This document shows, in pieces, positions 10,481-49,202 of a DNA stretch of 64,000 nt; positions within the stretch are counted from its first letter, which is position 1, and each line of letters begins with the position of its first letter. The position numbers and the translations under genes were made by a program. The DNA is from an uncultured Chlamydiae bacterium (GTDB lineage: Bacteria > Chlamydiota > Chlamydiia > Chlamydiales > JAJFMA01). The stretch is from positions 3,232,001 to 3,296,000 of the forward strand of contig CAVQMM010000001.1 of the NCBI GenBank assembly GCA_963713615.1, given 5' to 3'. The notes beneath the pieces were generated by a model. It searched no databases, was not told where the DNA came from, and worked only from the letters and a program-made list of their open reading frames with translations.

Positions 10481-11296
10481 GTGGCATTAACATCAGTACG
10501 GCCGATTGGTCTGGATGCTTGTTGGCAAACGACCGATCTAGTCAAAAGCATAGAGAAATGTTCAAAGGAAGGGGGAGTGGCCTCGCGTTTGACCGCAGGT
10601 GGTTTGACAGGTCTAGTAGCTCTTACCGCTTTAGCTAATGCGGTCATGCATTTCACCAGGGCTCTCGTTGAGCTTCCGATGATTGTTGTGATTACTGTTC
10701 GAAGGTTGGTTGGTATGAGTACTGTCGCGCAAAGCGACTACAATCTAAAGAGGGCTGCTTTGCATGTTGTCCGGGCCTTAGCCTTTGCTGCAGAGGGGGC
10801 CATTTGTGGCACGATTGGTATTCCTTTTGCTGTTGTCAAGCCTTCGGTGATTGTTTCTTTGCATCGCGATTTGCGTTTGGATGTTTCTTGGGAAGCTTCA
10901 GTTTTCTCGCAAAGATGGATAGGGCGTATAGGACAATGCTGCGATATGGCACAAAGTTACCTAAAGGGTGCTTGGGAACGGTTGTATAAGGCTGACCCAG
11001 TCTTTACAGTCAAAGTAGTGGGAGCCCTGGAGGGCGTCCTGGCGGTTGCTGGTATCGTGTGGATCATGTCTCGACCTGCACCGGAGATCTGTCCAAAACC
11101 GGAGGTCTGTCCTGCACCAGAGGTCGTTGATAAGCCTCGTAAATATAAGGATATGGAGATTTACGACTGCGTATGGGTCCCATATACAGGCTTCAGATCG
11201 GTAGAAGAGTTAAAATGGAAGGAGCAGCAGCACACCCTGACAGCGACGCCTAAGCCAACGGGGAGGATATGGTTATGGGGTGGTTTTGATGATTGA
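10481..11296 (+). CDS. Hypothetical membrane protein, paralog of 21427-22293
   Basis: RBS GGGGGAG before GTG; N-terminal ~190 aa similar to the ORF at 21427; hydrophobic segments. Confidence 0.7.
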   Translation: MALTSVRPIGLDACWQTTDLVKSIEKCSKEGGVASRLTAGGLTGLVALTALANAVMHFTRALVELPMIVVITVRRLVGMSTVAQSDYNLKRAALHVVRALAFAAEGAICGTIGIPFAVVKPSVIVSLHRDLRLDVSWEASVFSQRWIGRIGQCCDMAQSYLKGAWERLYKADPVFTVKVVGALEGVLAVAGIVWIMSRPAPEICPKPEVCPAPEVVDKPRKYKDMEIYDCVWVPYTGFRSVEELKWKEQQHTLTATPKPTGRIWLWGGFDD

Positions 11297-11326
11297 CCCA
11301 TTTTCGCTAAGAAAACAATGAAATAT

Positions 11327-11354
11327 TTGACAATTCGGAGTCTGTGGTTATCCT
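11327..11354 (+). promoter_or_regulatory. Putative sigma70-type promoter for tnpA
   Basis: TTGACA-N16-TATCCT; AGGAG RBS at ~11378. Confidence 0.4.
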
Positions 11355-11390
11355 TGTGCAGGAAAATCACAGATTGTAGGAGCACCGGCG

Positions 11391-11843
11391 ATGTCACAGT
11401 CATTAGCTTGCATGTTGGTACATGTCATTTTTAGCACGAAGAACCGTCAGCCCTTTATTCAACAGGGAACCATGCCCGAGCTTTTTGCCTATATGGCAGG
11501 AACAGCCAGGGGATGTGCTTCCCATGTATACGAGATTGGTGGCGTTGAGGATCATGTTCACGTGTTGCTTACGCTGCCAAGAACGTTGGCTTTATGTAAA
11601 TTGGTCGAAGAACTCAAGAAGTCATCTTCAAAATGGATAAAGACCAAAGGCCATATTTATGCCGATTTCTGTTGGCAACATGGATATGGAGGGTTTTCAG
11701 TAAGTCAGTCGGAAGTGGAAAAGGTTCGGAGATACATTAGAAATCAGCGTCAACATCACGCCAAAATGACCTTTCAGGACGAATATCGCTGTTTTTTAAA
11801 TCGATACAATGTTGCCTTTGATGAGCGCTATGTGTGGGATTGA
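11391..11843 (+). CDS. tnpA: Y1 HUH transposase (IS200/IS605 TnpA-like), REP-associated by position
   Basis: HVIFSTKNR, DHVHVL (HUH), WQHGYGGFSVS, YIRNQ (catalytic Tyr); REP array starts 9 nt after the stop. Confidence 0.92.
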   Translation: MSQSLACMLVHVIFSTKNRQPFIQQGTMPELFAYMAGTARGCASHVYEIGGVEDHVHVLLTLPRTLALCKLVEELKKSSSKWIKTKGHIYADFCWQHGYGGFSVSQSEVEKVRRYIRNQRQHHAKMTFQDEYRCFLNRYNVAFDERYVWD

Positions 11844-14800
11844 CCCGTTGTGGCATATACCATGGCGGTGCCATGGCCTGTTGCAATGCCTGCCCTTCGG
11901 GCTTTGGATGGATGACGGTGTGTGTTACAACAATATTGTGTATGGATGCCAGACAATCATCTGCATGGGCATTAACGGCATCCGGGATAATCCATGGACA
12001 TGTTTCGACGATAGTTTCGAATCGAGCGTTTATTAAATAATCTATTTTCAGAGACGCTACAATCATTTCTAAGCCCGAAGGGCAGACATTGCAACAGGCC
12101 ATGGCACCGCCATGGTATATGCAGCAACACGATTTCGCAGCCTGTAGGGCTGCCACAAGACGTCAGGTTGCACACACCGTATATACATGCGTTTTATAGC
12201 AGTCTTTCAGACTGCGTCATCATTTTTTGGCATATACCATGGCGATGCCATGGCCTGTTGCAATGCCTGCCCTTCGGGCTTAGGATGGGAGACGGTGTGT
12301 GTTACAACAATATTGTGTATGGACGCCAGACAATCATCTGCGTGGCTGTTAACCGAGTCCAGGGTGCTACACGGACATAATTCGTTCATAGGATGGGTGG
12401 TGTTGTGTGATACAACAATATTTCGTGTGTATGTCCGAACAATCATCTGCGTGGTTGTTAACAGAATCCAGGATGATCCACGGACAGATTTCAACGATAA
12501 TTTTGAATCGAACATTGATAATTTCGAATCGGACGTCTATTAATCGACCTTTTGTCAGATATGCTGTCACCATTTCTATGCCCGAAGGGCAGGCATTGCA
12601 ACAGGCCATGGCATCGCCATGGTATATGCAGCAATACGATACCGCAGTCTGAAAGACTGCCACAAGACGTCAGGTTGCACACACCGTATATACATGCGTT
12701 TTATAGCAGTCTTTCAGACTGCGAAATCTATCCTGGCATATACCATGGCGATGCCATGGCCTGTTGCAATGTCTGCCCTTCGGGCTTAGGATGGGTGATG
12801 GTGTGTGTTACAACAATATTGTGTATGGACGCCAGACAATCATCTGCATGGTCATTAACGGCATCCGGCATAATTCATGGACATGATTCAACGATAATTT
12901 CTAATCGAGCGTTTATTAAATAATCTATTTTCAGAGACGCTACAATCATTTCTAAGCCCGAAGGGCAGATATTGCAACAGGCCATGGCATCGCCATGGTA
13001 TATGCAGCAACACGATACCGCAGTCTGACAGACTGCCACAAGACGTCAGGTTGCACACACCGTATATACATGCGTTTTATAGCAGTCTTTCAGACTGCGT
13101 CATCATTTTTTGGCATATACCATGGCGATGCCATGGCCTGTTGCAATGTCTGCCCTTCGGGCTTAGGATGGGAGACGGTGTGTGTTGCAGCAATATTGTG
13201 TGTGTATGTCCGAGCAATCATCTGCGTGGCTGTTAACCGAGTCCAGGGTGCTACACGGACATAATTCGTTCATAGGATGGGTGATGGTTTGTGTTACAAC
13301 AATATTGCGTGTGGGTATCCGAACAATCGTCTGCGTGGTTGTTAACAGAATCCAGGATAATACACGGACATGATTTCAACGATAATTTTGAATCGAATAT
13401 GGATAATTTCGAATCGGACGTCTATTAATCGACCTTTTGTCAGATATGCTGTCATCATTTCTAAGCCCGAAGGGCAGACATTGCAACAGGCCATGGCACC
13501 GCCATGGTATATGCCAGGAATGGATTTCGCAGCCTGTAGGGCTGCCACAAGACGCATGCACAAATGAAGCGCTCACAAATAAACATATTCTGGCAGTCTT
13601 TCAGACTGCGTCATCATGTTTTGGCATATACCATGGCGATGCCATGGCCTGTTGCAATGTCTGCCCTTCGGGCTTAGGATGGGTGATGGTTTGTGTTACA
13701 ACAATATTGCGTGTGGGTATCCGAACAATCGTCTGCGTGGTTGTTAACAGAATCCAGGATAATACACGGACATAATTCGTTCATAGGATGGGTGACGGTT
13801 TGTGTTACAACAATATTGCGTGTGGATGTCCGAACAATCATCTGCGTTGCTGTTAACCGACTCCAGGATGACCCACAGAAATGGTTCAACAATAATTGTT
13901 TGAATCGAACATTGTTAATTTCGAATCGGGCATTTACCAAACAACTTCTTGTCAAATATGCTGTCATCATTTCTAAGCCCGAAGGGCAGACATTGCAACA
14001 GGCCATGGCACCGCCATGGTATATGCCAGGAATGGATTTCGCAGCCTGTAGGGCTGCCACAAGACGCATGCATAAATGAAGCGCCCACAAATAAACATAT
14101 TCTGGCAGTCTTTCAGACTGCGTCATCATGTTTTGGCCGATACCATGGCCATGCCATGGCCTGTTGCAATGTCTGCCCTTCGGGCTTTGGATGGGTGGCT
14201 GTGTATGTTACAACAATATTGCATGTGTATGTCCGAGCAATCATCTGCGTGACTGTTAGCCAAATCCAGGATGATCCACGGACATGATTCGGTTATAGGA
14301 TCGGTGGTGTTGTGTGATACAACAATATTGCATGTGGATGTCCGAACAATCATCTGCGTTGCTGTTAACCGAATCCAGGATAATACACGGACATAATTCG
14401 TTCATAGGATGGGTGATGGTTTGTGTTACAACAATATTGCGTGTGGATGTCCGAACAATCATCTGCGTTGCTGTTAACAGAATCCAGGATAATACACGGA
14501 CATGATTTCAACGATAATTTTGAATCGAATATGGATAATTTCAATCGGACGTCTATTAATCGACCTTTTGTCAGATATGCTGTCATCATTTCTAAGCCCG
14601 ACATCCCGCTAGAATTTTTCAAGATTTTTCGTAGCTTTCAGGCGATTTTTCGATGCCAATTCCTTCGGTTTTGAAACTTTTAATTATTTTCTAATTTTGC
14701 TAAATTTATAGAGCCGAAGTAGAGTAGCCGTGCTCCTTTCAACTGCGAAGGGACACGGTGAATTTACTTAGGAAGGTTGTATACAACTCCTATGGGGTTG

Positions 14801-14905
14801 CCGAAGCAGAGTAGCCGTGCTCCTTTTCTGCTCAGCTAACATCGCCGAATTTGCTGACCTTGTTCATTCAGGCCAAACAGAACAAAGCCCGTTTGCTAAA
14901 CTAAC

Positions 14906-16102
14906 TCAGTCTTCCTTCTGACGGTAATCCCTGTCATGTATGAGTATCGACCATATTACTCTTATCATATGACGGGCAAATGCTCGTACTGCTTGGTTAT
15001 GTTTTTTTCCCTCTGCTCTCTTCTTCTTGTAGTACTGTGCAGCCTCATCACATAGTTGTATATGTCGAGCAGCTCCGGTCATCATAGCTCCCTTTCCCCT
15101 CCAGTTAATATTTCGAGGCGATCGAGACCCCTCATATTGGCCAGAACTCTTGTTCAGAATTCCTATTCCCAAGTAGAGCGCTAGACTAGCTTCCGACTTA
15201 AACCGATCGATACTACCAATCTCTCCAGCGAGTTCTGCGGCACAAATGGAACCATATCCAGGAATAGATTCAATCCGAGATGCTATCTTGGATTGTGGGA
15301 TCAAACCCTCTATCAATACCTCCAACTGCGCTATTTCATCTAGCATCTCGAGTAGCCTTCTGACATCTCGTACTATTAATTTTCCTATCCACTCAACCTT
15401 TGAAGAGAACTTAGCCGTCTTTTGCCATTTCTGAATTTCCTCTGCATAAACCTCTCCAACGCCCTTGATTTGCAACAGGCTTCTTTTTTGCATTCGAAGC
15501 AACATGGTCATGTCTTCCTTCGAAGCAAGAAATCGTAGAAACCAAAGATTTGCTGGATTTTTTGTAATAGACAGTAGACCGGGGCAAACAGCCTGTAGAT
15601 CCCCTTGAAGTCGATTTATGATTCTTGTCTTTTCTTTTACCAACTCTCTACGACGCCTTGAAATATGTTTAAGTTGCTCGTTGCATACCGGTGGAGGCTC
15701 TACTTTCTGCAGAATATTTTTTGCCAACGGTAAGGTCTCTTGAACTTGAAACAAGCTAAAAATAGCCCAAGCGTCAATTGGATCTGTTTTGGCTGGACCA
15801 GGAAAAACTTCCTTAAATCTAGCCAATTTCATGTTGTTGACACTATACAAAGAATATCCGTGATCAAGAGCATATCTATCGATGGGTCTAGCATAGCCAT
15901 TAAACCCCTCCATAGCCATGACAACAGGCATGTTATAGGAAATTCTAAGCTTCTCAATTTTCTCAAAAAACTGCTCAATGTCTTCAGAAGTGTGGTTTAG
16001 ATAAAATCCATCGATGCGTTCTCCTGTGGACAAGCCTATGGCTACATAGTGTCGAACGCTACCGATATCTAGACAAATACGAAGTTCGGACTGATTTTGC
16101 AT
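14906..16102 (-). CDS. IS110 family transposase / bridge recombinase
   Basis: DEDD RuvC-like residues (CLDIG, MEGFNGY, KTDPIDA), SIPGYG, EIGSIDRF, SSG serine motif. Confidence 0.95.
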   Translation of the reverse strand: MQNQSELRICLDIGSVRHYVAIGLSTGERIDGFYLNHTSEDIEQFFEKIEKLRISYNMPVVMAMEGFNGYARPIDRYALDHGYSLYSVNNMKLARFKEVFPGPAKTDPIDAWAIFSLFQVQETLPLAKNILQKVEPPPVCNEQLKHISRRRRELVKEKTRIINRLQGDLQAVCPGLLSITKNPANLWFLRFLASKEDMTMLLRMQKRSLLQIKGVGEVYAEEIQKWQKTAKFSSKVEWIGKLIVRDVRRLLEMLDEIAQLEVLIEGLIPQSKIASRIESIPGYGSICAAELAGEIGSIDRFKSEASLALYLGIGILNKSSGQYEGSRSPRNINWRGKGAMMTGAARHIQLCDEAAQYYKKKRAEGKKHNQAVRAFARHMIRVIWSILIHDRDYRQKED

Positions 16103-16139
16103 GATAAATGCCCTGTTAAGTGTTTGTGAGCGTTAAATT

Positions 16140-16353
16140 TCACCCAAATTCCACTTCTACTTACAGAGCCACAATCAGAAGATTGGCACCATCCCGAACG
16201 GAATTATTGGATGATGCAAACGACGAAGGCGGCATATCGGGCCAGGCGAACAAACATTCGCTAAGGGCACACGGCCACACCTTCGTCGGCCAAAATGATA
16301 CCTTAGAGAAATGTTTTTTGTCTTTTCCTATTACCGTCGATAATCGTTTGCAA
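16140..16353 (-). ncRNA. Predicted IS110 bridge RNA
   Basis: Two stem/internal-loop domains. Guides UGCCCUU and GCCCGA match the REP target; CGGGAUG and GUAGA match the element's circle junction. Ends are approximate. Confidence 0.85.
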
Positions 16354-17020
16354 AATCCTATGGTAGAAGGGCAGACATTGCAACAGGCCATGGCACCGCC
16401 ATGGTATATGCCAGGAATGGATTTCGCAGTCTGAAGGACTGCAACAAGACGCATGCACAAATGACGCGTCCACAAATAAACATATTCTGGCAGTCTTTCA
16501 GACTGCGTCATCATTTTTTGGCATATACCATGGCGATGCCATGGCCTGTTGCAATGTCTGCCCTTCGGGCTTAGGATGGGAGACGGTGTGTGTTGCAGCA
16601 ATATTGTGTGTGGATGTCCGAGCAATCACCTGCGTGGCTGTTAACCGAGTCCAGGGTGCTACACGGACATAATTCGTTCATAGGATGGGTGATGGTGTGT
16701 GTTACAGCAATATTGCCTGTGGATGTTCGAACAATGATCTGCGTGGTTGTTAGCAGAATCCAGGATAATACACGGACATGATTTCAACGATAATTTTGAA
16801 TCAAACATTGATAATTTCGAATCGGACGTCTATTAATCGACCTTTTGTCAGATATGCTGTCACCATTTCTATGCCCGAAGGGCAGGCATTGCAACAGGCC
16901 ATGGCATCGCCATGGTATATGCCAGGAATGGATTTTGCAGTCTGCAAGACTGCCATAAGGTGTTCTAAACAATCTCTTGTGAATGTCACATAGATTGATT
17001 TCTGGAAGCTCCCCAAAAAA

Positions 17021-17056
17021 AACGTCTAGCAGTCCCAAAAAGACTGCTAGACGTTA
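17021..17056. terminator. Intrinsic terminator of the 1264-aa gene
   Basis: aacgtctagcagtc-ccaaaaa-gactgctagacgtt preceded by an A-run (U-tract on the minus strand). Confidence 0.75.
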
Positions 17057-17081
17057 TATTTGTAACTACAGATGAGATCTG

Positions 17082-20000
17082 CTAGCTATTGTTGTTATTA
17101 TTGTTGTTCTTAGGTAGCTGTATGCTCTTACGTTTGTTGTTGGTGTTAGGCTGGTAAACCTTTACGGTGAGAGGCTTGCCTGCATCTTTTAGCTTCCTCA
17201 CCTCAGCTAACGCACTTCTAAATGTACCATCTGCTCCAATACCTTTGGATATGGATTCTAGAACGTCCAGATTCAGAACATACGTCGTAGCTACCCAATC
17301 GCTCTTCTTGTTGGTTGGCTTGTACGTTAGCGTGATATCTTGGAGGCCCCTACCATCTGGGTGGTTAAAGTGGTTCACAATTTTATTATAGAAAAAGGCT
17401 TGAAGAGCTCTAGTATCATAGCCACCTAGAAAATCCACCACTTGTGTCTGAAGATTGCTGATCAGCTCTGCTTGTTGCTTACTAAGTGCTGCTTGAAGTT
17501 TAGCCTTGCTCTCCTCATTAGCATTTGCCAACTGATGCTTAGTCTTTTCAATTTCTTCATTGAGCCGATTCATATCCTCTTCTTGCCGAGCTTTCTCTAA
17601 TTCAAGTTGTGTTGCAACCTTTTTATGCTCTTCAGCACTCATCACAGTAGTTTCAACCTTTGTTGAAAGCTGAGCATTATTTGCCTGCAACTCCTCCAAC
17701 ATAGACTCAAGCTGAGCAATCCTTGCCGTGCGCTCTTCAATGGTTTGTCGTAAGGTATCATTTTCCTTCATGACACTTTTATGTTGGGTCTTGAGGAGTT
17801 CATTTTCCTGCATCAAAGCGCTTATTCTTTCTTGCAGCAGTCGTAGCTCGTCAGCTTGTGTGTTGATGGTTTCTTGCTGGCCAGAAATGGTGATCTCATG
17901 GGTCTGCACGAGATTGTCTCGTTCTTCAGCAAACTGCGTTTGCTCCTGAAGTTTTTTATTGGCCTCTACAATGGTCTGTTGGGCTTTTTCGAAAGCTTCC
18001 GTTTTGGAATTTAACTGTTCCACAACCAACTGATTTTGCTGCGTCAGTTCGCCGTTCAGTTTCTTGGATTCCTTCAACTCCAGCTGAGCTGCGTTGAGCT
18101 CGTTCTGCGCATCGCTACGAGCCTTGTTGACTTGCTCAAGCTCGCTTTGAACGGTTTTCAACTGATCGTTAAGCTCTTTCTGAGCCTCTTCGAATTGCTT
18201 AGCAGCGTCTGTATGACGGCTTTCAGCTTCGTTGAGCTTCTGACGTTCTTTAGTAACATCATTAGTAAGCTGCTGATTATTCTCTTCAAGCTCCTTCTGC
18301 TTCTGCTGAAGCTTGGTGATCTGCTCATCCTTCCACTGCAAGCTTTGCGAGAAACTTGTCAATTGATTGGCATTAGCACTGGCCGCTTGCTGCAGCTGGG
18401 TATATTCCGTTTCTTTTGTCTTGAGCAGCTCTGACGTTTCTGAAAGCTTCTTCTCAAGCTCACTGATGGCATTTAGGTGCTGTTGTTTGGTCTCTTCAAC
18501 CTGCTTGGCACTCACGCCTTCAGCTTCTATCTTATGTTGAAGCTGATTCTGGAGAGTCTCAATCTGTGACTTGGTCTTCTCCGATTCGTTCTTGAGGCTG
18601 TTGACCTCTGCGCGAGTATCGGCAAGCTCTTTAACAATCCTCGACTTGTCCTGCTTTTCCTGCTCTAGCAGCTCGCTAAGCTGGTCTTTCTCATTATTTA
18701 GAGATTCAATCTGATTTTGGATGCCTTGATGCTGTTCTCGAAGTTCAGACAATTGTTTTTCAAGATCCGCTACGCTAGCAAGTGAACTAGCCTTCTCGGT
18801 ATTTACCTCATGGAGTTGATTTGTCAGAGATTTTTCTGTCCCAGCGAGCTTCTCCTCGATCTCTGTTTTTTCACGTTCAAGTGCCTTAAGCTGCTTTTGA
18901 TACTCTTCAACCTCTTTTCTTAACTCAGACATTTTCTCCTTCTTACCACGGAAAGAAAACCCATAATTAATATTCTCTTGCTGATATTTGTCGCGCTCCT
19001 TCTTAAGCTTAAGGATGGTTGATTCACTCTCATTCAGTTTCAGGTTTCGGGCAGAAACTTGGAGATTGAGAATCCCCATTTGTCTTTCAAGCTCCTTGAT
19101 TTGATTTGACGCAGCGTCTTTCTCTCTAGTGACTCTATCAAGTGCTTGTGTCATCTCGTTAAGTGCTTGTGTCATCTCGTTCAGTCTAATTACCTGCTGC
19201 TGATTTTGAGATTGGTTACTTTCCAGACTCTGTATTTGATCGTTCAGTTGTTTTGTTTCTGTTTTTAATGTACTAATCTGGCTGCTTAGTTTGGATTCAT
19301 TTTGTTTTAACACGTATAGTTGAGTTTTCAATGCATTTGATTCATTTTCCAACTTGCTAATTGTGCTAGTCAGATCGTTTATCTGATCGTTTTTATCTTT
19401 CAGAGAGATTTTATTCTGGCCAATGGTCGCCAAATATTTTTCACAAGCTGTAGTAGCCTGCTGGAAATTTGCCTCAGCATCGTTCAGGTCCTTTTGCAGC
19501 TTTTGTAGCGCTTGCTTGTTTTTCTCTAGTTCAGCCTTTAGAACGTTGTTTGTGTTAGAAAGCTCAAAGTTCTTTGGTTGGAGCTGGTTATATTTCAATG
19601 TGATCTGTTCGACGTTTTCCTCGGCTGACATAAGCTTTTCTTTGAGCTTTTGAATGCTAGCAACCAAATCATTATTAGATAGCTGGTTATTAGCAGTATT
19701 CACAACGGATAGTGCTTGATCTAATAATTCCTGAAGTAATTTATTTTGTTTACTAAGTCTTTTAATTTCAAAATATAAGATACTAAACTCGTTAGTGTTA
19801 TCGTCTAAATCTCTGTTATTGTTAACGGTATAGGAGTGTTGCTCAAGCGCTTCTAAGATCGATTGAAAGCAAGAGTTATTTTCTCTGCGGAGGATCACTA
19901 TCAGCCCGGTCAAGAGTGAATTGCCTTTTGCAACATTGGTTTTAAACATTTCCCAGTCTTCTCGAAGTTTTTTAAACTTAAGATTACTAATTGGGAGTTT

Positions 20001-20876
20001 CTGGATGCTATCATCAAGAGTTTGTTCGAGACCTTTTTCGTAGTCATCGTCGTTGTTAAATATTATGTTGTCATTATTATTGTTGTTGTTCAGGTTTTGA
20101 TTTTTAATTATTATGTTATTATTGTTGTTGTTGTTTTTCTGTCTTGAATCATACGCTTTTGGATACTGATTGTCCTGTTCAATGTCACAACTGTCTTCGA
20201 TATATTCATCTTCATCACCAGAACTATGTGCTTTTAGCTCATCAATTTCTCTTTCAAGGTTCTGTTTTTTTACTAGAGCTTCTTTTAAGTTTTTTTGTAG
20301 ATTACTAATGTCATTTTTTTGTTTAGCGCTGAGGTTTTCGTTATTTTTAAGAATATTTGAAAGCTGCGTATTAATATTTTGATTAACCTCTTCAAGGCTG
20401 TAAACGTTCTCTTGCAATAGTTGAATTTGCTTCAAGGAATTATTAAATGCTCCATCGCAGGCTCTAATGTGAAAGGATGCCCAACCTAACCCACTTTCTG
20501 CATCTTTTTGGCTTGGGTCTTCCTGGATGATCTTGTCACGCTCTTTTTTAGAGCGCAGTATGGCGGTCATAATGCTATCGTTCGTGTTCATGAGCTTGAG
20601 TACAGTGACTGTAAAGTCTTTAGTTTGAAATGTGGGTTCCTTAACGTAGTATGGGCCATTATCATTGCCTATAAGCCGTAGGATGTCGAGGCATCGCTCT
20701 ACTTGATGTTCGTTCAACTCTTCTAAGGTCGAAAAATGCTTGAGTTGGGTTATCCGCTCCTCTTTTGAGAGTTCCTGGGCGCTTGGAACCTTTGCACCAA
20801 ACCAACCATTTTTAGACAAAAATCCATATTGTTTACTTTCTATGTCGGTATTAAAGTTAAAAGATGACTTATCCAT
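17082..20876 (-). CDS. Large coiled-coil protein with poly-Asn tracts, candidate secreted effector
   Basis: 1264-aa ORF rich in E/Q/K/L heptads; N-runs; AGGAG RBS. Confidence 0.8.
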   Translation of the reverse strand: MDKSSFNFNTDIESKQYGFLSKNGWFGAKVPSAQELSKEERITQLKHFSTLEELNEHQVERCLDILRLIGNDNGPYYVKEPTFQTKDFTVTVLKLMNTNDSIMTAILRSKKERDKIIQEDPSQKDAESGLGWASFHIRACDGAFNNSLKQIQLLQENVYSLEEVNQNINTQLSNILKNNENLSAKQKNDISNLQKNLKEALVKKQNLEREIDELKAHSSGDEDEYIEDSCDIEQDNQYPKAYDSRQKNNNNNNNIIIKNQNLNNNNNNDNIIFNNDDDYEKGLEQTLDDSIQKLPISNLKFKKLREDWEMFKTNVAKGNSLLTGLIVILRRENNSCFQSILEALEQHSYTVNNNRDLDDNTNEFSILYFEIKRLSKQNKLLQELLDQALSVVNTANNQLSNNDLVASIQKLKEKLMSAEENVEQITLKYNQLQPKNFELSNTNNVLKAELEKNKQALQKLQKDLNDAEANFQQATTACEKYLATIGQNKISLKDKNDQINDLTSTISKLENESNALKTQLYVLKQNESKLSSQISTLKTETKQLNDQIQSLESNQSQNQQQVIRLNEMTQALNEMTQALDRVTREKDAASNQIKELERQMGILNLQVSARNLKLNESESTILKLKKERDKYQQENINYGFSFRGKKEKMSELRKEVEEYQKQLKALEREKTEIEEKLAGTEKSLTNQLHEVNTEKASSLASVADLEKQLSELREQHQGIQNQIESLNNEKDQLSELLEQEKQDKSRIVKELADTRAEVNSLKNESEKTKSQIETLQNQLQHKIEAEGVSAKQVEETKQQHLNAISELEKKLSETSELLKTKETEYTQLQQAASANANQLTSFSQSLQWKDEQITKLQQKQKELEENNQQLTNDVTKERQKLNEAESRHTDAAKQFEEAQKELNDQLKTVQSELEQVNKARSDAQNELNAAQLELKESKKLNGELTQQNQLVVEQLNSKTEAFEKAQQTIVEANKKLQEQTQFAEERDNLVQTHEITISGQQETINTQADELRLLQERISALMQENELLKTQHKSVMKENDTLRQTIEERTARIAQLESMLEELQANNAQLSTKVETTVMSAEEHKKVATQLELEKARQEEDMNRLNEEIEKTKHQLANANEESKAKLQAALSKQQAELISNLQTQVVDFLGGYDTRALQAFFYNKIVNHFNHPDGRGLQDITLTYKPTNKKSDWVATTYVLNLDVLESISKGIGADGTFRSALAEVRKLKDAGKPLTVKVYQPNTNNKRKSIQLPKNNNNNNNS

Positions 20877-48354: not shown

Positions 48355-49202
48355 TTGGATGGACTAAAGGACGAAAAGGACTTATAGAATAATGTCCGCT
48401 GAGTCCTTTAGAGGTAATTGCAGGAGTCCGATTTCCGAAGTCAATTTCCTGAAAATCGGATGCCGGTGAAGAGAGAGTCATTCCCTTCCCAGGCCCGAAG
48501 GGTCGATATTGCAACAGGCCATGGCATCGCCACATAGGCCTCAACCTAACAGGTCTTTTGAGCTTATATCTCAATGACTTAGGACTTCACAATCGTATCT
48601 CGGCGCGCAGCGCTTTGGAGTGCGGTCGCTTGCGACCGCTTTTCGTTCCTTGGGACGGCAATGCTAAACGGCATTGTATGGATTCGTCGAAGGCTGCATG
48701 TACTAACTATTTTACCCTTAGGGAATTATAGTGATGCCGTTGCACACGACCGTCGCAAGGAACCCAAAGCGGTCGCAAGCGACCGCACTCCAAAGCGCTG
48801 CGCGCCGAGATACGATTGTTAGGCTTAGGTTGAGGCCTATGTGGCATCGCCATGGTATATGCCAAAACGGTTTTAACAGCCTGTAGGGCTGCCATAAAGC
48901 GCATGCATAAATGGTGTTTGTAAACTGGCGTCTTGTAGCAGTCCTTCAGACTGCGAAATCCCTTCCTGGCATATACCATGGCGATGCCATGGCCTGTTGC
49001 AATATCGACCCTTCGGGCCTGGGAGGGGAGAAAAGCCTGTCTTTCCAGACTGGATAGTGCCATACCACTTAAGCTCTCTAGAATCGCCTTCTCACAAAAA
49101 AAGGTAACCTTTTTTCCCGAGAATCGACTCTCAGGGGCTCAAATAATTTTGCAATTACCTCTTTATGTCCTTTTCGTCGCTTTGGTCCTTTAGTCCATCC
49201 AA
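48355..49202. mobile_element. Nested composite palindromic element, copy 2 (with extra 137-bp REP-A insert)
   Basis: Outer 18-bp IR ttggatggactaaaggac (48355-48372 / 49185-49202); 13-bp IR agaggtaattgca (48410 / 49150-49162); inner REP-A variant and REP-B pairs. Confidence 0.88.

Follow-up and report, generated by a model that had tools for sequence, protein, structure and literature searches.

A single-copy IS200-class Y1 nuclease gene and its probable partner, a three-hairpin repeat module, in a chlamydial genome

A locus in the genome of an uncultured Chlamydiae bacterium raises the question of how a nuclease gene and the long array of palindromic repeats that follows it belong together. 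The locus lies in a stretch of 64,000 nucleotides (the window; positions 3,232,001 to 3,296,000 of contig CAVQMM010000001.1, GenBank assembly GCA_963713615.1), in which the gene tnpA, coding for a Y1 nuclease of the HUH type, stands at the head of the array. A preliminary description had taken the two for a domesticated nuclease, related to the transposase of the IS200 insertion sequences (IS), that amplifies an array resembling the bacterial interspersed mosaic elements (BIMEs) and REPINs, the inverted doublets of repetitive extragenic palindromes (REPs). In our judgement it is probable that tnpA encodes an intact, single-copy Y1 nuclease and that the 14 repeats are copies of the three-hairpin module of its gene family, which the enzyme is predicted to bind, cut and spread as inverted doublets. 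Positions below are those of the window unless they carry the prefix C1, which marks genome coordinates.

The product of tnpA matches the Pfam family Y1_Tnp (PF01797) over residues 8-119 with an E-value of 1.2e-23 and 84 bits, the cut-off being 23. This is the sole Pfam match of its 150 amino acids (aa), and there is no C-terminal helix-turn-helix (HTH) domain such as marks subclass 2.1, to which most of the tyrosine transposases associated with terminal inverted repeats (TIRYTs) belong. The translation shows H55-V-H57 (DHVH), W95-Q96 and Y115-IRNQ-RQ-HH (YIRNQRQHH), and the HUH motif and the single catalytic tyrosine align with DHIH and YIENQ of ISHp608 TnpA. Judged from its translation, tnpA is therefore an intact, full-length Y1 nuclease gene of the IS200-like class with all motifs kept, as the preliminary description had it. 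Placement of the protein among the IS200 enzymes and the tyrosine transposases associated with REPs (RAYTs), a check proposed there, gives a divided answer: the NCBIfam IS200 equivalog model is barely passed (57.6 bits against a cut-off of 55), whereas the REP_Tyr_transpos model of the classical RAYTs (NF047646) gives 22.4 bits where its cut-off asks for 80, and the tyrosine motif is YIRNQ and not the Y---NP of classical RAYTs. A sequence search of the PDB returned distant IS608 and ISDra2 TnpA matches only, with ISHp608 TnpA as the closest solved relative (E 0.0036) and no chain named a REP-associated nuclease among the 15 sequences with E ≤ 1.

A word-indexed search found 5172 homologues of TnpA at E ≤ 0.001, mostly of exactly 150 aa and 53-64% identical; those named in their sources are labelled IS200/IS605 transposase or RayT, and the best named matches are chlamydial. 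The family has a conserved C-terminal tail (...FQDEY...DE[KR]Y[VL]W[DE]), and 46 of the 83 homologues from the loci compared below carry the strict tyrosine motif of the subclass 1.2 type. In the genome itself (3.97 Mb, 3 contigs) tblastn detects one copy of tnpA at 100%, a 39% paralogue and a 25% match, and thus neither the several near-identical copies expected of an IS200/IS605 element nor the multiple TnpA copies with ordinary IS200 ends that the preliminary description had named as contrary to its own reading. Two further points of that description hold: no tnpB-like open reading frame (ORF) adjoins tnpA, and the gene is without IS200-type ends, its relatives carrying inverted copies of one module. 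Two 151-nt contigs from the RNA library X10 match 11380-11652 exactly, and may derive from DNA carry-over.

The tie between gene and repeats becomes visible in the homologous loci, of which we compared 80 from named public genomes, mostly metagenome-assembled genomes (MAGs) of Verrucomicrobia, Planctomycetes, Chlamydiae, Bacteroidetes, Acidobacteria, Deltaproteobacteria and other groups, together with 10 from relatives. After exclusion of the 11 loci with less than 300 nt on one flank, 72 of the 83 in plus orientation were kept, and in 64 of these the upstream and downstream flanks contain an inverted match to each other, typically of about 100 nt and 10-130 nt from the gene. The window locus is among the remaining eight. 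Read outward from the gene, the shared module of about 88 nt consists of a hairpin hp0, about 21 nt, a hairpin hp1, CT with about 10 nt, and a hairpin hp2. While hp0 and hp2 are short and GC-rich, hp1 is nearly identical across phyla (CCCAGGGC-loop-GCCCTGGG) and is kept, with its CT, almost letter for letter in Chlamydiae, Planctomycetes, Verrucomicrobia, Bacteroidetes and Acidobacteria. Its stem reads CCATGGC-loop-GCCATGG in the window, the family forms being CCATGG.../CCCAGGG..., and it is preceded by ...CATATA in the window and by A in most relatives, so that the 5' GT[AG]G foot of classical REPs is not seen.

A hairpin like hp1 is present in 148 of the 175 flanks that measure 120 nt or more. 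Candidates for both hp0 and hp2 accompany it in 122 of these flanks, for hp0 only in 15, for hp2 only in 7 and for neither in 4; CT follows hp1 in 117, a reversed form preceded by AG is found in 19, and 12 show neither. The median distance of hp1 from the gene end is 56 nt (quartiles 51 and 66.5), compared with 16 nt in the window. Alignment A1, of 40 modules, was made with MAFFT and not fitted to structure. Its 20 proposed pairs vary on both sides in 18 cases, and 88.5% of its cells pair, against 69.5% in shuffles (0/500 reach the observed value) and at most 57% with slid partners; this pairing is partly built in, since the modules were picked from the 122 flanks for perfect hairpins, short hp1 loops and CT, whereas neither the constancy of the spacing nor the compensatory changes result from that choice. 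The same pair statistics come from alignment A2, the 150 best matches of a covariance model, R1, that was built from A1; A2 is fitted to the model and leans towards structure. Over the 566,542 bases of 89 loci R1 makes 271 matches, with at least one in 88 of the 89 by table reading and none in L072.

In the chlamydial genome the module is one of a large family. Its 43-nt core (hp1, linker and hp2) occurs in 267 copies at 8 or fewer mismatches, where about 1e-7 would be expected by chance, which excludes a chance origin, and these copies, whose counting had been proposed in the preliminary description, stand mostly in inverted doublets. We find 52 clean reverse-forward doublets at 163-166 nt from start to start; of the other reverse-forward pairs, 36 are separated by an insert of about 320 nt, 7 by an IS66 element of about 2.6 kb and a few by something else. 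The doublet has the order [hp2' hp1' hp0'], about 45 nt, [hp0 hp1 hp2], that is, the layout around the gene in relatives minus the gene. Since the module flanks the gene outward on both sides in the homologues, the doublet looks like a gene-less derivative. As single-stranded DNA (ssDNA) a doublet forms a single long hairpin (-97 kcal/mol, z -19.5), as a REPIN does, and one module by itself folds as DNA into three hairpins (z -4.1). Like a classical RAYT gene, tnpA occurs once and adjoins repeats that are scattered over the genome, with these on one side in the window and on both sides in 64 of the 72 loci. Dispersed doublets carry about 95 nt of further conserved sequence outside hp2 (e.g. 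C1:476500-477700 and C1:2600800-2602000), in two kinds of outer flank, X and Y, that are combined as X-Y, X-X and Y-Y. Six arrays of 5 or more cores exist, including that of the window, which the array script splits at an IS and so reports with 11 of its 14 copies; the five others lie far from tnpA, with periods of 473 or 455 nt, and in them a whole block of about 473 nt (X, doublet, Y and linker) is repeated in tandem at 97-99% identity.

The distribution of gene and module was followed by searching tnpA and R1 each in this genome and 30 relatives. Both were found in 12 of the 31 and neither in 16, with two genomes having the gene only and one the module only; R1 is without a match at E ≤ 0.001 in 18 of them, and for this genome, as for G004, the number of modules that it counts is a lower bound (142 scored candidates). 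Among the relatives, G009 has a 38% homologue and no module match, G021 a weak partial protein match only (E 4.8e-5), G002 (94% complete, about 290 contigs) four module matches and no gene, and G012 fragments of the tnpA gene. Within the chlamydial genome the paralogue at C1:3872945-3873382 (39% identical to tnpA, Y1_Tnp E 1.2e-27, YIANQKHHH) is flanked on both sides by a three-hairpin module of its own (locus L096, C1:3872400-3873900). With up to 12 mismatches allowed, the 65-nt core of that module is present in 23 copies, often in tail-to-tail pairs, opposite to the pairing of the main family. One gene type with one repeat type has been described for RAYTs (PMC6006769). On both sides of a third, distant Y1-like ORF at C1:1042780-1043133 (25-29% identity) stand numerous short hairpins such as GGACTnnnAGTCC, which may represent a third repeat system.

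How the module is arranged behind tnpA is summarised in Table 1. Repeat finders, reading of the sequence and the covariance model R1, which was used to place the copies, agree on seven forward and seven reverse copies downstream of the gene, and beyond the array R1 finds one dispersed copy in the window. In the forward-to-reverse intervals a 109-nt unit is found 13 times, distributed as 1, 2, 1, 2, 2, 3 and 2, followed by a tail of type A (two full copies and one partial match) or type B (five copies). The linkers from reverse to forward copy are conserved and those from forward to reverse variable, and with the sevenfold alternation of orientation this gives the array the BIME type. In all this the preliminary description was accurate: its seven pairs, its conserved reverse-to-forward spacers, its unit counts with two tail types and its two hairpins per REP are recovered. 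Its second pair of small palindromes in the spacers of about 108 nt is also present but belongs to the repeat itself, these palindromes being hp0 of both modules of a doublet. The array is one-sided as it had stated, without a core over about 66 kb upstream of tnpA (the nearest ends at C1:3177315) and without an R1 match from window position 1 to the gene; the one-sidedness is a local loss, in view of the module on both sides in the homologous loci. The claim of a more layered design than that of simple REP doublets does not survive, for it reduces to filler of this locus: the 109-nt unit and both tails are found nowhere else in the genome, which cannot be said of the module, and no structure is predicted for the 109-nt unit, for tail B or for an entire forward-to-reverse interval (z -0.1, 0.5, -0.7 and -0.9). 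The 109-nt units were accordingly dropped as candidate hairpin substrates (z -0.1 and 0.5). The R1 match of the first forward copy, F1, is weak and extends into the coding end of tnpA; an hp0 was considered there and rejected, no hairpin being seen. A permissive Rfam search over 10500-17200 gave three chance-level matches far below the gathering scores, and hence no known RNA family. The array lies between convergent genes, the downstream one ending at 17082. This gene (17082-20876, minus strand) codes for 1264 aa of coiled-coil-like character, rich in Q, E, K and L, with poly-Asn runs C-terminally and in the N-terminal region.

Table 1. The tnpA gene, the parts of the repeat array and other module-related features of the window (rev, reverse copy; fwd, forward copy, both as placed by R1)
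Feature	Position	Strand	Content	Basis
tnpA	11391-11843	+	150-aa Y1 HUH nuclease ORF, single-copy in genome	Pfam and motifs in translation
First forward copy F1	11860-11902	+	hp1 11860-11876, linker, hp2 11892-11902; hp0 absent	R1 match 11809-11906, 33.5 bits
Interval 1	11903-12069	.	one 109-nt unit and tail A	
Inverted doublet 1 (first reverse copy, central spacer, F2)	12070-12282	.	two three-hairpin modules head to head; rev 12070-12156, fwd 12196-12282	
Interval 2	12283-12576	.	two 109-nt units and tail B	
Inverted doublet 2 (R2-F3)	12577-12788	.	one long ssDNA hairpin, -97 kcal/mol, z -19.5; rev 12577-12663, fwd 12703-12788	
Interval 3	12789-12952	.	one 109-nt unit and tail A	
Inverted doublet 3 (R3-F4)	12953-13165	.	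rev 12953-13039, fwd 13079-13165	covariance model
Interval 4	13166-13461	.	two 109-nt units and tail B	
Inverted doublet 4 (R4-F5)	13462-13676	.	rev 13462-13548, fwd 13590-13676	covariance model
Interval 5	13677-13973	.	two 109-nt units and diverged tail B	
Inverted doublet 5 (R5-F6)	13974-14189	.	rev 13974-14060, fwd 14102-14189	covariance model
Interval 6	14190-14601	.	three 109-nt units and tail B, then outer hp2 half of R6 (14596-14601) severed by IS	
IS110-family IS	14602-16367	-	in hp2 loop of R6; right boundary within 3 nt	transposase ORF 14906-16102
Inverted doublet 6 (remaining R6, then F7)	16359-16573	.	rev 16359-16445, fwd 16487-16573	sequence reading and covariance model
Interval 7	16574-16869	.	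two 109-nt units and tail B	
Last reverse module R7, array end	16870-16956	-		covariance model
Dispersed module, abundant genome-wide subtype	48935-49022	+	partner copy split by insert of about 320 nt	

The comparison of the 109-nt units, proposed in the preliminary description, bears on how the array arose. The first units of two-unit intervals cluster, those of intervals 2, 4 and 7 being 91-98% alike and those of intervals 4 and 7 alone 98%, despite a separation of 3.4 kb; the last units of intervals 4, 6 and 7 form another cluster (92-95%), and the single units of both tail-A intervals pair at 92%. The periods as a whole are 81-90% alike, and the 300-nt stretch 12734-13033, which spans interval 3, is a 93%-identical copy of 11851-12150 in the region of interval 1, 883 nt upstream. 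Since the units group by their position within the period and the 300-nt stretch recurs, segmental tandem duplication is indicated: on the sequence pattern, copying took in entire periods, singly or in pairs, and now and then an inner unit was gained, as unequal recombination or slippage would leave it. Growth of the array would then be due to one of these two processes acting between repeats, with slippage during replication, periods of about 510 and about 883 nt and inner duplications of 109 nt, and not to the nuclease. Of the claim that a domesticated nuclease amplifies a REPIN/BIME-like array, what stands is the single-copy gene beside a genome-wide family of inverted doublets; the amplification of the array points elsewhere. 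For E. coli BIMEs, Ton-Hoang et al. proposed an origin by transposition or recombination followed by local amplification, which resembles the growth suggested here, and they noted that the tandem number of BIMEs varies per locus (PMC3333891). In other loci of the gene family tandem repeats also lie just outside hp2, as in a Parachlamydiaceae MAG (L022:4484-4890, a 105-nt period four times); the downstream flanks of L082 and L088 have repeated hp2-like hairpins outside hp2, and loci such as L016 and L018 short runs of GGGCTT or GGGGCGGAGT. Tandem growth beside this gene family may be recurrent.

That the nuclease spreads the repeats over the genome is likely, on comparative grounds, and the chemistry of IS608 TnpA and of E. 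coli TnpAREP suggests a way in which it could do so. The enzyme would bind hp1, which its near constancy across phyla makes the candidate binding hairpin, on ssDNA, probably at replication forks. Cutting would take place near hp1 through Y115 with a metal held by H55 and H57, as in the IS200/IS605 enzymes and TnpAREP, and the doublets would be moved or copied in trans. For E. coli TnpAREP, binding to single-stranded REP and cleavage at C|T are on record (PMC3333891), and by this analogy alone the CT that follows hp1 may be where the cut falls. The copy of tnpA in the window is presumably no longer mobile itself, since it lacks the upstream module and the downstream hp0 and should be unable to move as a unit. 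We take the system for a RAYT/REPIN-like one built on a different Y1 lineage, with binding, cleavage and mobility as predictions.

An alternative would see in tnpA the stump of an ordinary autonomous IS200-like element, horizontally acquired and decaying and never domesticated, with the modules as its ends and the doublets as its miniature inverted-repeat transposable elements (MITEs). The IS200 equivalog score and the kinship with ISHp608 TnpA are compatible with this, and so are the patchy distribution, the identity of only 63% within the genus, the gene fragments of G012, the loss of one end in the window, and one relative in which two 232-nt flanks are 97% alike, suggestive of a young unit. 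Yet no genome examined has several near-identical gene copies, and here a single gene faces 267 cores; the modules at the two ends are inverted copies of one another, which the ends of IS200/IS605 elements are not; the protein is of full length with every motif present; and the published subclass with this signature is low in copy number and devoid of IS features (PMC6006769). We regard this origin as unlikely. Still more doubtful is the idea that the nuclease built the array itself, by repeated copy-in events in cis that added doublets and 109-nt units on one side, even though the array begins 16 nt past the stop codon, the 109-nt units are absent elsewhere in the genome and some homologues have tandem repeats just outside hp2 (L022, L082/L088). 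The grouping of units by period position and the duplication of whole periods are as expected from unequal crossing-over, arrays whose 473-nt periods are 97-99% identical stand at five places distant from the gene, and 109-nt units without predicted structure would offer little to an enzyme that reads hairpins.

The modules could also be elements of the host, active in termination or insulation between convergent genes, in stabilisation of mRNA or in protein binding, with a secondary link to the gene. Their stems are GC-rich, conserved and show compensatory changes, the array does lie between convergent genes, and such roles have been credited to E. coli REPs; however, this leaves unexplained the outward flanking of the gene in 64 of 72 loci of many phyla, the paralogue's own type of module and the 16 of 31 relatives that have neither gene nor module, and no Rfam family reaches its threshold, so that we consider it very improbable. 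An assembly artefact of collapsed or mis-joined repeats is hardly credible. We found no read or contig spanning the array, none of the public sequencing runs contained more than 0.15 of the sampled words, and the matching contigs were short; a 246-nt contig from the peat metagenome run X2 joins 12836 to 13215 with 11 shared letters, skipping 378 nt, and may represent either an allele with a shorter array or repeats collapsed in that assembly. Against an artefact, the periods differ by 10-19% and can therefore be assembled, the array lies inside a 3.9-Mb contig, and short contigs from three DNA runs that belong to as many studies, one of the runs perhaps being the source sample, match locus-specific parts without difference (exact short-contig matches include 12390-12540, 13827-13977, 12315-12465 and 14175-14391).

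The reading of tnpA as the nuclease that spreads the module has its own difficulties. The protein fails the classical RAYT model, and NCBI rules would label it an ordinary IS200 transposase. In the window the gene has a module on one side only, and the array subtype is rare elsewhere: the array copies differ from the core by 0-1 mismatch and the dispersed copies mostly at 3 of 43 positions, so that the array is not an obvious source of the dispersed copies. The pairing statistics owe something to the way in which A1 and A2 were made. The related genomes are kin and not independent samples, which makes the co-occurrence of gene and module a pattern and not a test. Homologues in genomes of the genus are at most 63% identical, and no neighbouring gene was found in common, which agrees with horizontal arrival no less than with long residence. 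Of the neighbours in the window, DnaB, an aldo-keto reductase, a 271-aa ORF and the coiled-coil protein gave no tblastn match in the tnpA loci (2.0-8.5 kb) of ten relatives, and the 271-aa ORF only matches of 34-36%, elsewhere in two same-genus genomes.

The modules are themselves targets of other mobile elements. The element within the array belongs to the IS110 family by its DEDD_Tnp_IS110 and Transposase_20 domains (70.9 and 49.7 bits) and by the NCBIfam model transpos_IS110 (173.7 against 140). All nine genomic copies have the same junctions and orientation in the hp2 loop (...GGCCCGA / IS / AGAAGGG...), the others being at C1 204055, 1751079, 2060032, 2107682, 2334186, 2700361, 3307632 and 3547222, and one copy is itself interrupted, with its ORF split at C1:3547484-3551951. 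IS621 and other IS110-family elements are known to insert into REPs, with fixed, sequence-specific targets of this sort. Like ISPpu9 of P. putida, a REP-inserting IS110 element (PMC8450116), the chlamydial element has a repeat as its target, which differs in being the hp2 loop of a three-hairpin module; its nine insertions at one position offer a natural example of sequence-specific IS110 targeting. The insert of about 320 nt that splits 36 doublets (e.g. C1 205815-206340 and 277999-278523; window 48493-49018) lies inside hp1 in the examples read, with inverted ends (CATAGGCCTCAACC...) and an apparent target duplication of 8-11 nt, and is by these sequence features a MITE that uses the module as its target. 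Seven doublets harbour the element of about 2.6 kb (L095, C1:432900-436000, and six more; 2786-2813 nt between cores), which encodes an IS66 Orf2-like protein and an IS66 DDE transposase (Pfam E 3.5e-25 and 1.5e-83).

When transposases retained by their hosts are discussed, the REP/REPIN-RAYT association is the textbook example, known until now from class-2 Y1 proteins mainly of Proteobacteria and Cyanobacteria. The same life-style is now seen on a class-1, IS200-like protein whose subclass has been described in print as lacking repeats, and its DNA partner is unusually large, with three hairpins, and conserved across phyla. With a near-invariant hairpin between two that are free to vary, the module provides a second, independent test bed for the reading of hairpins by Y1 enzymes. 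Such repeat populations exist, moreover, in bacteria of intracellular type with mid-sized genomes, and genes annotated as IS200/IS605 family transposase in genomes of the Planctomycetes-Verrucomicrobia-Chlamydiae (PVC) group may be single-copy and associated with repeats.

Among the 12 subclasses into which Quentin, Siguier, Chandler and Fichant (2018) sorted the Y1 proteins, TnpAY1 subclass 1.2 is the one that the chlamydial protein resembles (PMC6006769). That paper gives for it DH[IV]H, WQ and Y---Q--HH (YIKNQKEHH), a median of 148 aa and 1.7 copies per genome with 36% identity between copies, and describes it as new, not IS-like, found mostly in Cyanobacteria and Bacteroidetes, and 'REP: no'; its Table S1 of hand-found REPs, over the whole file, has no subclass 1.2 row and no CCCAGGGC. 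The chlamydial TnpA shares the signature (YIRNQRQHH), the length (150 aa), the low copy number, the lack of IS200-type ends and, with 39%, nearly the identity to its paralogue, and by motif, length and copy number it matches subclass 1.2, an assignment that follows motifs and not the authors' hidden Markov models. It differs in possessing a cognate module with dispersed copies, and module-bearing homologues extend to Chlamydiae, Verrucomicrobia, Planctomycetes and others. A literature search, mostly outside subscription journals, found no link of subclass 1.2 or of chlamydiae to REP- or REPIN-type repeats. With some reserve, we lean towards viewing subclass 1.2 as a third, pan-phylum REP-mobilising lineage that originated within the IS200 class, with a fixed 88-nt module as its partner and REPIN-like populations of hundreds in environmental chlamydiae.

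With IS200/IS605 TnpA (IS608, ISDra2) the protein shares the fold family and the aligned catalytic residues, and presumably the hairpin-guided cutting of ssDNA. The chlamydial system departs from these elements by the lack of multiple identical copies and of tnpB, by its conserved C-terminal tail, and by inverted copies of one module in the relatives in place of distinct left and right subterminal hairpins. The TIRYTs and TIRtrons of Di Nocera (2013; PMC3733652) are likewise Y1 genes framed by long, partly dispersed inverted repeats; they are mostly of subclass 2.1, with an HTH tail and repeat ends of GGGG[AT][CG]A[CG], neither of which the chlamydial system has.

The closest parallel in organisation is with the RAYT/REP-BIME system of E. 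coli and the REPIN-RAYT system of Pseudomonas (Nunvar 2010; Bertels and Rainey 2011; Ton-Hoang 2012). There as here, a single-copy Y1 gene stands beside dispersed palindromic repeats, inverted doublets fold into a long hairpin, orientations alternate and linkers fall into two classes, a separate repeat type goes with each paralogue, and IS elements target the repeats. The classical RAYTs are class-2 proteins with Y---NP, whereas the chlamydial protein has Y---Q and stays far below the threshold of their model. A classical REP is one hairpin of 20-40 nt, in contrast to the 88 nt, three hairpins and missing 5' GT[AG]G foot of the module. The chlamydial doublets reach about 210 nt, with repeats on only one side of the gene in the window, and whereas classical REPs are lineage-specific, hp1 of the chlamydial type has remained nearly constant across phyla.

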